Shown: positions 25,422 to 28,529 of the stretch, in pieces
Numbering within the stretch: the first letter of the stretch is position 1
How the letters are laid out: each line of letters starts with the position of its first letter
Assembly (NCBI RefSeq): GCF_024223415.1
Contig: NZ_CP100500.1
Direction: 5' to 3' (one strand)
DNA length: 64,000 bases
DNA from: Escherichia coli
GTDB lineage: Bacteria > Pseudomonadota > Gammaproteobacteria > Enterobacterales > Enterobacteriaceae
Notes under the pieces: generated by a model
What the model was told of the DNA's origin: nothing
Databases searched by the model: none
Seen by the model: only the letters and a program-made list of their open reading frames with translations
Program-made: the position numbers and the translations under genes

Positions 25422-25739
25422 TCAGAAATGATCTGATAGTTTGTTATCTGTATCTTCCAGCACCCTGTTGATATCCCGGGAGCCATGTACGATACGTTCG
25501 ATACGAACTTCAGTATCCAGAACTCTGAACAGCAGAAGATAACGACCATACGAACAACCTCTGATCCCGGGTCCCAGCTCTCTCCTTTCTCTGTAGAGTT
25601 CTGGAGATTCTGCGATTAACAGACATTGCTGGTAAAGTTCTTCAGTAAAACTGATTGCGCGGACAGGATTATCCTGAGCGATCCAGTCACCAATGGCCTC
25701 AAGATCGTTTTCTGCTAATGGTGAGACAGTCAGTTTCAT
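25422..25739 (-). CDS. parE: ParE/RelE-family toxin
   Basis: 105 aa; 4-bp overlap with the upstream antitoxin gene; typical size and hydrophobic/basic pattern. Confidence 0.7.
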   Translation of the reverse strand: MKLTVSPLAENDLEAIGDWIAQDNPVRAISFTEELYQQCLLIAESPELYRERRELGPGIRGCSYGRYLLLFRVLDTEVRIERIVHGSRDINRVLEDTDNKLSDHF

Positions 25740-25999
25740 ATTGACTGTTCACCTGCTGCTATCTTTTTGTATTTGTTTGTCAGTCTCCCGAACACCTCTT
25801 CAGCACTTTTACTTTCACCGCTGTTAATACCTGCGGTAACGGCGTTACGAAGTGATTCAAGCTTTATCTTCTGTTCCTGCTCTTCCAGGGCCCGAAGTCC
25901 GGCGCGAATAACTTCACTTGTATTGTTATATCGTCCACTTTCTATCTGTTCGCGGATAAACGTTTCAAAGTAAGGGCTGAGGGATACACTGGTAGGCAT
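25736..25999 (-). CDS. parD: ParD-family (ribbon-helix-helix) antitoxin
   Basis: 87 aa; ...SEVIRAGLRALEEQEQK... is the classic RHH/ParD signature; translationally coupled to parE. Confidence 0.75.
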   Translation of the reverse strand: MPTSVSLSPYFETFIREQIESGRYNNTSEVIRAGLRALEEQEQKIKLESLRNAVTAGINSGESKSAEEVFGRLTNKYKKIAAGEQSI

Positions 26000-26067
26000 G
26001 ATGATTTCTCACTGATTAAGTACTATCAGTTAATAATAATTAATATTAGTGAGTTGTAAAATCCCCT

Positions 26068-26934
26068 TTATGCCTGGCTGCTTTTGCTTACGATGTCCGC
26101 CCGGAATTCTGGATAACGTTTCGCCAGAACAGCATTCAGCTTCTCCACCAGTTCCGGGTGTTTAAACGTGATATGCGCGGAGCCCTTCCTGAAGTATCTG
26201 ATGCTGAACATCTCATCCTCATAGCACGCTTCACCCTGAACAGAACGGATGTGTTCATCCAGACGAATGAGGATATTGTCCCTGCAATCGGGTATGGGTT
26301 TACCACTGAACAGATACAGTATCCTTTCCAGGTCGGCAAGCCGCACGGCCTGCGGACCATGGTTCAGACCAAATCCCCACCAGTCCCATTTCACCAGGTT
26401 GTTGAGGATAATCTTGCTGCCGAATTTACAGGGTGACCCGCTGTTTTGCGTCCGGCTCAGCCCCCTGAAGAGGTTGATGACGCCCCGTTCAGCCATTTCA
26501 TCCCTGTTACGGTGCAGTTGTTCAGACGTGCTCAGGATATTCGCTTCGCTGATTTCCGGGAAATTATCCTCCTCCAGTGAACGGTACCATTCATCACGCG
26601 CCTGTGCATCCATCAGACTCAGCATCCCGGAGCGTTGCATCAGGTCACGCCAGATTTCCCGGTCAAGATTCCGGGTGATGGCTTTCATTGCGGTTTCCGG
26701 TTTTTCCATCAGCCAGCAGCCACAGCGAAAATCCTGTTTCACGGCCCAGTCCCGGACAGTTTTACCGCCAATACTTTCTGTCATTGCTGAGATTTCTGCC
26801 AGTTGCCGGATAAGCCTTTCGGTTTGTTGCAGTGCTTCATTTCGTACCGTCACAACGTGCCGGATATCTGTGGAGCAGATAACGTCCGTATGTCCGTTAA
26901 GCGTTTCCGGACGGGAGACTGTGATATCAGACAT
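26068..26934 (-). CDS. island-associated hypothetical protein (DUF4942-like by recollection)
   Basis: 288-aa ORF in the position such proteins usually occupy near the cbtA/cbeA module in CP4-like islands. Confidence 0.45.
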   Translation of the reverse strand: MSDITVSRPETLNGHTDVICSTDIRHVVTVRNEALQQTERLIRQLAEISAMTESIGGKTVRDWAVKQDFRCGCWLMEKPETAMKAITRNLDREIWRDLMQRSGMLSLMDAQARDEWYRSLEEDNFPEISEANILSTSEQLHRNRDEMAERGVINLFRGLSRTQNSGSPCKFGSKIILNNLVKWDWWGFGLNHGPQAVRLADLERILYLFSGKPIPDCRDNILIRLDEHIRSVQGEACYEDEMFSIRYFRKGSAHITFKHPELVEKLNAVLAKRYPEFRADIVSKSSQA

Positions 26935-27030
26935 AACCGATATTCCTTTTTGCAGATAAATGAAAACGCCAGCCCTGTTCAGGCTGGCGTCAGGTTAATG
27001 AATCGTGGTGAGTGAGATGATGAGTGAAAC

Positions 27031-27276
27031 TCACCGTTTCTGGTGCTGAAGCTTCCGCTTCAGCTGGCGCAGGGTGCGGATATCCGCTCTGGCCTGTTCA
27101 ATAACGGGCAACAGTGCTGCCGAATCCGTTTTATCCTCATCGTTGTCGAAGATAATGCCGGAGCCGCAGTCGATATTGTCCTGCAGCCACGCAATCAGAA
27201 TATCCGGTGCCGTTTCCGTGGTTAATGATTTCATACTGTCGGTTACCAGTCGAAAGTGGGTAAACCCGGCAGACAT
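27031..27276 (-). CDS. small hypothetical protein
   Basis: 81-aa acidic ORF overlapping the end of the upstream gene; no recognisable motif. Confidence 0.3.
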   Translation of the reverse strand: MSAGFTHFRLVTDSMKSLTTETAPDILIAWLQDNIDCGSGIIFDNDEDKTDSAALLPVIEQARADIRTLRQLKRKLQHQKR

Positions 27277-27731
27277 TCAGCGCCGGCATCCAGATGGATG
27301 AGACTGACGCCATAACGCCGGATGAGTGTGACAACCAGACGACGAAACGTTTTTGACAGACCCAGGCGTTTAAGCCGCAGAGCCGGGTACGACCACGCAT
27401 CGGTACGTAACAGATATCCGCTGCCTGTAAAATGAATCCATTCTGATTCGCCGGTGTCATTCGTCTGATGCGACAGCGAGTACAGCCAGGCATTGTCCTG
27501 TTCCGTGATATGTGCGGTACTGCAGCGTATGCCGGTAAGGGCCGCAAATGGTGGCATGCAGTCTGCTGAGGTCCGGTCAGATTCATCAACAACACGAAGG
27601 GAACAGCCGTTATCGCAGACCACGTTAATCAGTTCAGCGAGATTAACACCATCGACGTCAGCGACAATGCGCCCCATGTTCAGTGCCTGCACGTTAACGC
27701 TGTCGGCTTCCAGTGTCAGGGACAGTTTCAT
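27243..27731 (-). CDS. hypothetical protein translationally coupled to cbtA
   Basis: 162 aa; ATG at 27731 overlaps the cbtA stop (ATGA). Confidence 0.5.
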
Positions 27732-28105
27732 GGTTTCACCTCACAGTGTTTACCCAGGGTGATGTTGTTCACCATTCGGTAGTGGCTGCGGGTCATCAGC
27801 CCGGTTGCCCGGCGGGCCCGGAGAATATCAATGCTGCTGATTAACTGAGAACGGGTACTGGCGCTGAATCCCGGCTGGTCGGTACGCACCAGCGCGTATT
27901 TTTCCACAAGAAAGTTCACCGCATCACACAGTGAAATACCTGCCTCAATATGCTGTTCAATCACACGTTCATCGGCGAACGGTGTGTCATTCAGCGTGAG
28001 GCCATAGTGCTGGTCCAGCAACCGGGTGAGCAGTGTCTGCCAGATTTCAACCGGAGACGGGCAGCGCGATGCCGCCCGTACGTGTGTGTCGGGGAATGTT
28101 TTCAT
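27728..28105 (-). CDS. cbtA: CbtA (YeeV/YkfI/YpjF) family toxin
   Basis: From internal Met at 28105: [70 protein letters not shown]..., closely matching recalled E. coli YeeV. Confidence 0.85.
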
Positions 28106-28151
28106 CTTAAGTACTCTGTAACAGGTGATAATAAAGAAGTGCTGTCCGGGG

Positions 28152-28529
28152 TTATGCGGTGGTTCCGGGTGTTGCCGGTGTCGGATAAATGGCGATATAC
28201 ACGTAACCACAACTGCCGAGGGTGTCGGCCTCGCAGGTCAGCCCTTTCGCATACAGTGTGACGGTATGCTGATGGCGGGGACTGAGTTCACCGCTGGTGA
28301 GCATGAGCTCCAGCTGTTTCATCAGCAGCGGAAAAGCCTGGTCCAGGTGATACGCATCTGCGTCGCTGAACCGGCTTCTGATACCGGCCCGGTCTGCAAG
28401 GTAATGCAGGCGGTTACCCTCCTGCACCAGACGGGCACCAAAACAGGGCGTCACGGTGCAGGGCAGTCCCCACCAGGGGAGATTGTTATTGTCGTCGGGA
28501 TGCGTTGTCCCGGTGAGTGTGTCTGACAT
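28152..28529 (-). CDS. cbeA: CbeA (YeeU/YafW/YfjZ) family antitoxin
   Basis: From internal Met at 28529: [82 protein letters not shown]..., closely matching recalled YeeU. Confidence 0.85.

Follow-up and report, generated by a model that had tools for sequence, protein, structure and literature searches.

The locus examined here lies in a 64,000-nucleotide stretch of Escherichia coli DNA (NZ_CP100500.1), the whole of which we refer to as the window. Seven genes, cbeA, cbtA, DUF5983, DUF957, DUF4942, parD and parE, follow one another in that order, every one of them on the minus strand, and lead up to a direct repeat of a tRNA-Phe 3' end and a second integrase gene:

28152-28529, minus strand: cbeA, YeeU-family type IV antitoxin, 125 aa (PF06154, E=5.9e-54, 181 bits)
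27728-28105, minus strand: cbtA, cytoskeleton-binding toxin family, 125 aa (PF06755, E=1e-60, 203 bits)
27243-27731, minus strand: DUF5983 gene, 162 aa (PF25638 (DUF5983_N), E=1.9e-29, and PF19419 (DUF5983), E=8.8e-23)
27031-27228, minus strand: DUF957-type gene (MKSLTTE...), 65 aa, whose homologues RefSeq names DUF957
26965-26991, minus strand: terminator-like hairpin, 11-bp stem then T-rich tail, TTCATTTATC, closing the cbeA-cbtA-DUF5983-DUF957 unit
26068-26934, minus strand: DUF4942 gene, 288 aa (PF13708, E=1.9e-59)
26033-26060, minus strand: sigma-70-like promoter TTTACA-16-TATTAT upstream of parD, 10/12 matches
25736-25999, minus strand: parD, ribbon-helix-helix antitoxin, 87 aa (PF03693, E=2.6e-18)
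25422-25739, minus strand: parE, ParE/RelE-fold toxin, 105 aa (PF05016, E=1.6e-19)
25161-25179, minus strand: 19-nt direct repeat matching the tRNA-Phe 3' end by sequence identity, taken as attR of the pheU island
25097-25160, minus strand: native pheU downstream flank, identical to the K-12 sequence downstream of pheU
25151-25126, minus strand: pheU terminator hairpin, inside the pheU flank and after the att repeat
23698-24963: second integrase, which starts a tandem island

The island end holds two independent, intact toxin-antitoxin (TA) units plus three conserved genes. An earlier note on this DNA had described two TA modules packed at the island end; both are there, but they lie 1.7 kb apart and are not tightly packed, because the DUF957 and DUF4942 genes stand between cbeA/cbtA and parDE. 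Its placement of parDE next to the att repeat was borne out, the repeat lying 243 bp from the parE stop codon, as was its description of cbtA/cbeA with a coupled 162-aa downstream gene (PF06755, PF06154 and DUF5983 matches, and an ATGA junction). CbeA and CbtA in turn close a block, GTPase-DUF932-antirestriction-RadC-DUF987-CbeA-CbtA, at window positions 32482-27728, in the same order as in RefSeq loci and in K-12.

Not everything around the TA genes is in good repair. In the window, a 2-bp deletion shifts the reading frame of the gene immediately upstream of cbeA, and in the GF60 copy of the locus, which is 99.7% identical, IS100 sits in cbtA and IS2 after DUF957; with neighbours decaying in this way, the block is not strictly maintained. 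Taken with the K-12 yeeW gene, which is a stump, and with the many fragmentary DUF5983 entries in the databases, these lesions could point to a cryptic element whose modules survive as remnants, in decay and no longer functional. We consider this quite unlikely, as all seven ORFs of the window block are full length against their family models, dN/dS is 0.09-0.30 across all seven genes, and the promoter and coupling signals are intact.

We found that positions 25179-25161 (minus strand) are the last 19 nt of tRNA-Phe and that 25179-25097 are identical over 83 nt to the K-12 pheU 3' end and downstream flank, the match to the K-12 flank reaching 25028 at 92% identity. None of the shuffles of the window matched the tRNA-Phe 3' end. 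The 19-nt repeat, running directly into native pheU flank, points to the attR end of a pheU island here. The att repeat is present in a single copy and the window contains no tRNA gene, suggesting that the partner copy (attL) is outside the window. What lies past the repeat is a further island with its own integrase, and not the core chromosome. Our reading, to which we assign a probability of roughly 70%, is that a CP4-like island at the pheU tRNA-Phe gene has its integrase-distal (attR) end here, and that this end carries two intact TA units. For annotation, this reading would fix the pheU island boundary and places two tandem islands in the window, with the TA genes intact.

The parDE assignment draws on several comparisons. 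ParE scored 70.7 bits against PF05016 (cut-off 23), and its best PDB relatives are ParE toxins, namely 6x0a (E=1.5e-12), 5ceg, 8c24, 5cw7 and 3kxe; its score against the RelE/StbE model TIGR02385, 24.3, fell below the cut-off of 27.9. ParD scored above the PF03693 cut-off and reached 98.3 bits against TIGR02606 (cut-off 46.2). The parD and parE genes overlap by ATGA, and the promoter-like site in front of parD is the sole one in 24900-29600. With a ParE/RelE-fold toxin and a ribbon-helix-helix ParD directly upstream in one operon, the pair classifies as a type II ParDE system. Both parD promoter hexamers are kept in the divergent M21170 copy. A palindrome between the -10 element and the Shine-Dalgarno sequence (ACTGAT-N8-ATCAGT) was considered as a ParD operator and rejected, being out of register in the M21170 copy. 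On family membership alone, ParE would be expected to poison DNA gyrase, and ParD to bind ParE and repress the operon.

The cbeA/cbtA pair was compared with that of K-12. CbeA and CbtA are 88% and 85% identical to their K-12 counterparts, the order and spacing of the two genes are as in K-12, and a GAGG lies 7 nt upstream of the cbeA ATG. A PDB sequence search returned no relative of CbtA. K-12 CbtA binds FtsZ and MreB, with F65 the FtsZ determinant and R15 the MreB residue (PMC5624674). The window CbtA keeps F65. At residue 15 it has C, which also stands at that position in the functional paralogues YpjF and YkfI (PMC5624674). Given the 85% identity and the retained F65, CbtA would be predicted to bind FtsZ and MreB and in this way stop cells from dividing and elongating, and CbeA to counteract it. 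The cbeA/cbtA block was found in 5423 of 5426 complete E. coli genomes.

We next consider what the two units do for their host element. Both are probably addiction modules: were a cell to lose the excised island, it would keep the stable toxin while its supply of antitoxin ceased, so that island-free segregants would be penalised. The position of parDE allows a different proposal. In the same genome set, parDE adjoins DUF4942 in 471 of 5426 genomes and is a minority add-on, and the slot after DUF4942 is variable, being filled by parDE here and by darT-darG in Citrobacter sp. NCU1, and empty in E. albertii. DarTG is an established phage-defence TA pair, and since it occupies the parDE slot in the Citrobacter locus, the terminal slot may be defence cargo. 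The modules could then be mainly anti-phage (abortive infection) cargo in a variable island-end slot, and not a means of island addiction. PADLOC defence models, however, gave 0 matches among the eight locus proteins tested, with no model matching ParE, ParD, CbtA or CbeA, and for the nearest characterised relatives the roles with experimental support are cytoskeleton inhibition and element maintenance (PMC5624674, PMC8706911). We find a mainly defensive function unlikely; defence and addiction roles can in any case coexist.

The remaining genes raise the question of what travels with CbtA. We assembled a comparative set of 16 loci (single-protein scans gave 10 and 4 loci), in which the order cbeA-cbtA-DUF5983-DUF957-DUF4942 is kept across five enterobacterial genera. 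It is seen in E. coli, E. albertii, Citrobacter, Yokenella and Trabulsiella and also in IMG/VR contigs, down to 62-66% identity. The cbtA stop codon and the DUF5983 start codon share the tetranucleotide ATGA, and a GAGGTG lies 6 nt ahead of that start codon. The ATGA junction is present in 16/16 loci, down to 62% identity. Ribosomes finishing cbtA would be expected to restart on DUF5983 at this overlap, such that DUF5983 would be made in step with the CbtA toxin. The earlier note had named non-conservation of the coupled ORF as a result that would speak against it; instead, the junction is kept in all 16 loci and dN/dS for DUF5983 is 0.12-0.28. It had also called this third gene less well characterised. 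Our literature searches gave no functional study on DUF5983, DUF957, DUF4942 or yeeW. The AF2 model of DUF5983 has a pLDDT of 87.5, and a PDB sequence search found no relative of the protein.

Coupling of this constancy could make DUF5983, perhaps with DUF957, an extra part of the CbtA system: a coupled modulator, a second antitoxin or an adaptor at a fixed ratio. The ATGA overlap and internal Shine-Dalgarno sequence in all 16 loci, to 62% identity, are what such a part would lead one to expect. The DUF5983 N-terminal domain is seen in cbtA-linked proteins only, and a TA survey lists DUF5983 downstream of CbtA in all sequence types but ST11 (PMC10790755). Against this, K-12 CbtA, YpjF and YkfI are toxic and are neutralised without DUF5983 (PMC5624674); K-12 has no intact copy, with a 64-aa YeeW stump or nothing in its place. 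In AR_0085, cbeA and cbtA are 100% identical to those of the window, yet the adjacent DUF5983 is frameshifted, a lesion that is evidently tolerated. The C-terminal domain also occurs without cbtA, on 854 PLSDB plasmids and in phages, and in IncF plasmids short DUF5983 proteins are encoded beside DUF932 and the SLT/traM/oriT side, where cbtA is missing. A linker-fused CbtA-DUF5983 AF2 model (pTM 0.38) gave no confident packing, although its shallow alignment makes this a weak argument, and confidence was low at the CbtA C-terminus as well as in the DUF5983 N-terminal domain. K-12, AR_0085 and the cbtA-free copies show that DUF5983 is not the obligatory partner of a three-component TA system. 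We therefore regard the extra-component proposal as rather doubtful, and DUF5983 is probably not a dedicated third TA component. The invariant coupling and the cbtA-restricted N-terminal domain would nevertheless be compatible with DUF5983 being functionally tied to CbtA.

DUF957 is a separate gene beginning 14 nt past the DUF5983 stop codon and is kept in all complete loci (dN/dS 0.16-0.30); its product has no match in current Pfam or NCBIfam. DUF4942 matches part of phrog_6263 'DNA methyltransferase' and phrog_38825, and a PDB sequence search found no relative for it. Most likely, DUF5983, DUF957 and DUF4942 belong to an entry/establishment gene set common to these islands and plasmid leading regions, and are not needed for CbtA neutralisation. 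We can also imagine, as a speculative and improbable extension, that DUF5983 works as an effector or modulator linked to CbtA, possibly with DUF957 alongside, and that cbeA/cbtA is the visible part of a four-gene entry/establishment operon shared with conjugative plasmids. Under such an arrangement, DUF5983 would combine an N-terminal domain specific to cbtA with a C-terminal domain of the leading-region type.

A preprint (10.64898/2026.06.09.728211) has proposed that a programmed -1 ribosomal frameshift joins DUF5983 and the 65-aa gene into one protein. In the window, the -1 frame stays open over the 34 nt that precede the DUF5983 stop codon, the overlap contains G_GGT_TTA, which is formally an X_XXY_YYZ slippery heptamer, and fused gene models exist in databases (including P0001 and P0064). 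Across the loci, however, the frame of the downstream gene is not constant, being +1 in two (L003 and L007) but +2 in the others, and in four (L008, L009, L010 and L025) the downstream frame opens only 7 nt ahead of the stop or there is a different sequence. The heptamer is altered in three (L002, L004 and L007), the gap between DUF5983 and DUF957 ranges from 11 to about 40 nt, and each DUF957 copy has its own ATG (MKSLTTE, MPELTTE or MRTLTTE). The single 234-codon ORF of AR_0085, which runs from the DUF5983 start into the DUF957 region, is flagged by RefSeq as a frameshifted gene, indicating mutation rather than a programme. We consider a programmed frameshift extremely unlikely, and rejected this reading for the 81-aa ORF (27031-27276) overlapping DUF5983 because frame relation, overlap and heptamer all vary among the 16 loci.

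In nearly every E. coli genome DUF5983 is translationally coupled to cbtA; it is also found beside oriT in hundreds of plasmids. Solving the functions of DUF5983, DUF957 and DUF4942 would refine the textbook picture of CbtA/CbeA and of plasmid leading-region genes.

Comparison with named systems places the locus among familiar relatives. CP4-44 CbtA/CbeA (YeeV/YeeU) and yeeW share the gene order and the 4-nt overlap between cbtA and the next gene, and CP4-44 ends cbeA-cbtA-yeeW near the integrase-distal end of a P4-integrase-type island, as here. CP4-44 yeeW, in contrast, retains no more than 64 aa of the DUF5983 N-terminal domain, whereas the window gene has the full 162 aa; K-12 CbtA has R at residue 15 where the window protein has C, and K-12 CP4-44 is without DUF957, DUF4942 and parDE. 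In CP4-57 the last gene pair is a TA unit of the same family, yfjZ-ypjF, lying about 190 bp short of the annotated prophage end. YpjF and YfjZ are each 67% identical to the window proteins, and no DUF5983, DUF957, DUF4942 or parDE follows ypjF. The earlier note had seen here the usual stabilisation architecture of CP4-like islands, stabilisation being a probable role by precedent; as a layout this holds for the integrase-distal cbeA/cbtA-family pair, found in both CP4-44 and CP4-57, but not for parDE, which is absent from both.

For parDE the nearest parallel is ParE_SO/CopA_SO, a ParE-family TA system that maintains the excised CP4So prophage in Shewanella oneidensis (PMC8706911). It likewise resides on a CP4-type element, but its antitoxin is CopA where the window has a CC2985-type ParD, and ParE_SO is not close to the window ParE, 7ETR not being among the PDB matches of the latter. 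The short DUF5983 proteins of IncF leading regions (e.g. K. pneumoniae pDD02280-2, WP_013214015.1) are 32-48% identical to the window protein in the C-terminal domain, and the DUF932 protein encoded next to them is 59-72% identical to the island's own DUF932. They are about 100-190 aa long, have neither the N-terminal domain nor coupling to cbtA, and lie beside SLT, oriT and traM.

The closest relatives are the pheU/pheV islands of GF60 (NZ_CP172185), AR_0085 (NZ_CP029741) and M21170 (NZ_CP133919), at 99.7%, 98.8% and 85.7% nucleotide identity to the window, respectively. All three carry the same 13-gene row, GTPase ... cbeA-cbtA-DUF5983-DUF957-DUF4942-parD-parE, with every gene named by family in RefSeq. 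An integrase comes after parE in GF60 and M21170, while in AR_0085, where DUF5983 is frameshifted, the kps capsule genes come next. Relative to GF60 and AR_0085, the window copy has intact cbtA and DUF5983 but a frameshifted gene upstream of cbeA. The layout is already known and, being annotated in hundreds of sequenced E. coli genomes, is an ordinary one, with nothing unusual at the locus.

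Pfam and NCBIfam profile searches identified cbeA, cbtA, parD and parE between 25422 and 28529, confirming the two toxin-antitoxin modules that the earlier note had placed at the island end, and every gene of this region lies on the minus strand:

28152-28529, minus strand, cbeA (PF06154, E=5.9e-54)
27728-28105, minus strand, cbtA (PF06755, E=1e-60)
27243-27731, minus strand, DUF5983 gene, 162 aa (DUF5983_N + DUF5983)
27031-27228, minus strand, DUF957-type gene, 65 aa (RefSeq name DUF957; no current Pfam model)
26068-26934, minus strand, DUF4942 gene, 288 aa (PF13708, E=1.9e-59)
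25736-25999, minus strand, parD (PF03693; TIGR02606, 98 bits)
25422-25739, minus strand, parE (PF05016, E=1.6e-19)

The closest solved structures to ParE are themselves ParE toxins (6x0a, E=1.5e-12). The stop of cbtA and the start of the DUF5983 gene share an ATGA with GAGGTG upstream, in keeping with the coupling to cbtA that had been claimed for the 162-aa gene, and an ATGA overlap also joins parD and parE. Consensus scans found a single promoter-like site in the region, TTTACA-16-TATTAT immediately upstream of parD, together with a strong terminator hairpin 3′ of DUF957 (26991-26965) and a further terminator at 25151-25126. The promoter and terminators therefore point to two distinct units, cbeA-cbtA-DUF5983-DUF957 and parDE, with DUF4942 between them. 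Directly upstream of cbeA, a gene named ‘antitoxin of toxin-antitoxin stability system’ by RefSeq, 214 aa in E. coli AR_0085 and GF60, is split into two ORFs in the window (28567-29221, minus strand) by a 2-bp deletion in a G-run near 28967.

The att repeat said to adjoin parDE (25179-25161, minus strand) equals the 3′-terminal 19 nt of tRNA-Phe and is followed by the native pheU flank: from the repeat into the K-12 sequence after pheU, the match is identical over 83 nt, pheU terminator included, and at 92% identity it extends to 158 nt. The repeat marks the attR end of a pheU-inserted island whose integrase end lies beyond position 64000; neither a tRNA gene nor another copy of the 19-nt repeat occurs in the window. 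K-12 has just the yjdQ remnant immediately beyond the pheU flank; in the window a second P4-type integrase (23698-24963, minus strand) stands there and opens a second, tandem island that runs leftwards to about 7669 and carries a TPR protein, a phosphoethanolamine transferase, an outer-membrane protein, PhoX, IS66 and an S6-peptidase (SPATE) autotransporter. The toxin-antitoxin modules therefore close one island of a tandem pair. The TPR gene that follows the second integrase (22399-23472, minus strand) has a paralogue near the right end of the window (59103-60158, minus strand; 74% nucleotide identity over 1 kb), beside which no integrase homologue was found. In no complete E. coli genome does the 8 kb from 56000 to 64000 occur as one piece. 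Each half is matched at 99.8-99.9% by genomes other than those that match its partner, and the two meet near 60394, next to genes for IS110-family transposases, which makes the island mosaic in its right part. Elsewhere, a 499-bp inverted repeat (85% identity) pairs 4294-4791 with 53035-53528, and positions 1-2000, which encode a DUF3833 protein on the minus strand, have a G+C of 0.63-0.67, well above the remaining window.

We compared 16 loci from E. coli, E. albertii, Citrobacter, Yokenella, Trabulsiella, IMG/VR contigs and MAG contigs with non-enterobacterial labels. The order cbeA-cbtA-DUF5983-DUF957-DUF4942 was maintained down to 62-66% protein identity, and the coupled ORF proved conserved, with the ATGA junction in all 16 loci (GGAGG, GAGG or GGGG upstream) and low pairwise dN/dS (DUF5983 0.12-0.28; DUF957 0.16-0.30; remaining genes 0.09-0.26). 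The DUF957-type gene is presumably AntiFam ANF00264. A 2026 preprint (10.64898/2026.06.09.728211) suggested that ANF00264, a small domain next to DUF5983, is reached via programmed frameshifting. An 81-aa ORF in the window (27031-27276, minus strand) shares 34 nt with the 3′ end of DUF5983, and this overlap contains G_GGT_TTA, formally a −1 slippery heptamer. Across the 16 loci, however, the relative frame varies (+1 in L003 and L007, the latter from E. albertii), loci L008-L010 have a closed overlap, the heptamer is unconserved and every DUF957 copy has its own ATG, leaving the proposal unsupported. Fused ORFs, such as one of 234 codons in AR_0085, are the product of ordinary frameshift mutations.

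DUF5983 is a small family (215 representatives at 50% identity among 1.8 billion proteins). Its C-terminal domain of ~95 aa is also found alone, or preceded by another N-terminal region in proteins of ~188 aa; homologues also occur in phages. The short forms are encoded in transfer regions of plasmids or ICEs that lack cbtA, on 854 PLSDB plasmids by tblastn, adjoining a DUF932 gene 59-72% identical to that of the island and a relaxase or SLT-traM-traY-traA. The order in K. pneumoniae pDD02280-2 is RelE/ParE+HTH-DUF932-DUF5983-SLT-traM; in loci L019 (3003-3308) and L029 (5974-6303; K. pneumoniae pDD02280-2) a short DUF5983 protein sits between DUF932 and SLT, next to traM, traY and traA. This DUF932/SLT/traM site marks the edge of the leading region in IncF-type plasmids. 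K-12 has a 64-aa stump of DUF5983 or nothing, and AR_0085 has a frameshifted copy beside cbeA and cbtA identical to those of the window, which suggests that DUF5983 is dispensable for keeping CbtA in check. That it is truly tied to CbtA in function is thus unlikely, given a C-terminal domain that occurs without cbtA in transfer regions and phages, and cbtA without intact DUF5983 in K-12 and AR_0085; modelling CbtA and DUF5983 fused through a linker gave no usable information (pTM 0.38). In our reading, based on the cbtA-free occurrences and this dispensability, DUF5983 is a gene for the entry or establishment of mobile elements, and these islands express it in step with cbtA.

Judging by their families, CbtA would block FtsZ and MreB and be antagonised by CbeA, and ParE would poison gyrase, with ParD binding ParE and repressing the operon. 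The window CbtA keeps F65 and has C15, as in YpjF and YkfI (residues per PMC5624674). The slot after DUF4942, held by parDE in the window, carries darT-darG (PF14487 + Macro domain) in Citrobacter sp. NCU1 (L008 5681-7463) and is empty in E. albertii, where chromosomal mug and rpoD come directly. It is therefore possible that the modules are defence cargo in a variable slot, but PADLOC defence models matched none of the proteins of the locus. A probable role of the modules in penalising island loss is supported by precedent, as excised CP4So is maintained by ParE_SO/CopA_SO (PMC8706911).

With a 4-kb query, matches were obtained in 5423 of the 5426 complete E. coli genomes, at a median of four places per genome; the parDE-plus-repeat segment is rarer (471 of these genomes). 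The nearest copies are in GF60 (99.7%) and AR_0085 (98.8%), where RefSeq gives every gene a family name, and annotation of this architecture already exists for many genomes. The GF60 copy (L013 22077-26066) has IS100 within cbtA and IS2 between DUF957 and DUF4942, with cbeA, DUF5983 and parDE intact. The observation is confirmed and its interpretation supported, with caveats. Of the layout that the earlier note had called usual for CP4-like islands, parDE is absent from both CP4-44 and CP4-57 of K-12, whereas a pair of the cbeA/cbtA type does end both: CP4-57 in yfjZ-ypjF, and CP4-44 in cbeA-cbtA-yeeW with the same 4-nt overlap as in the window.
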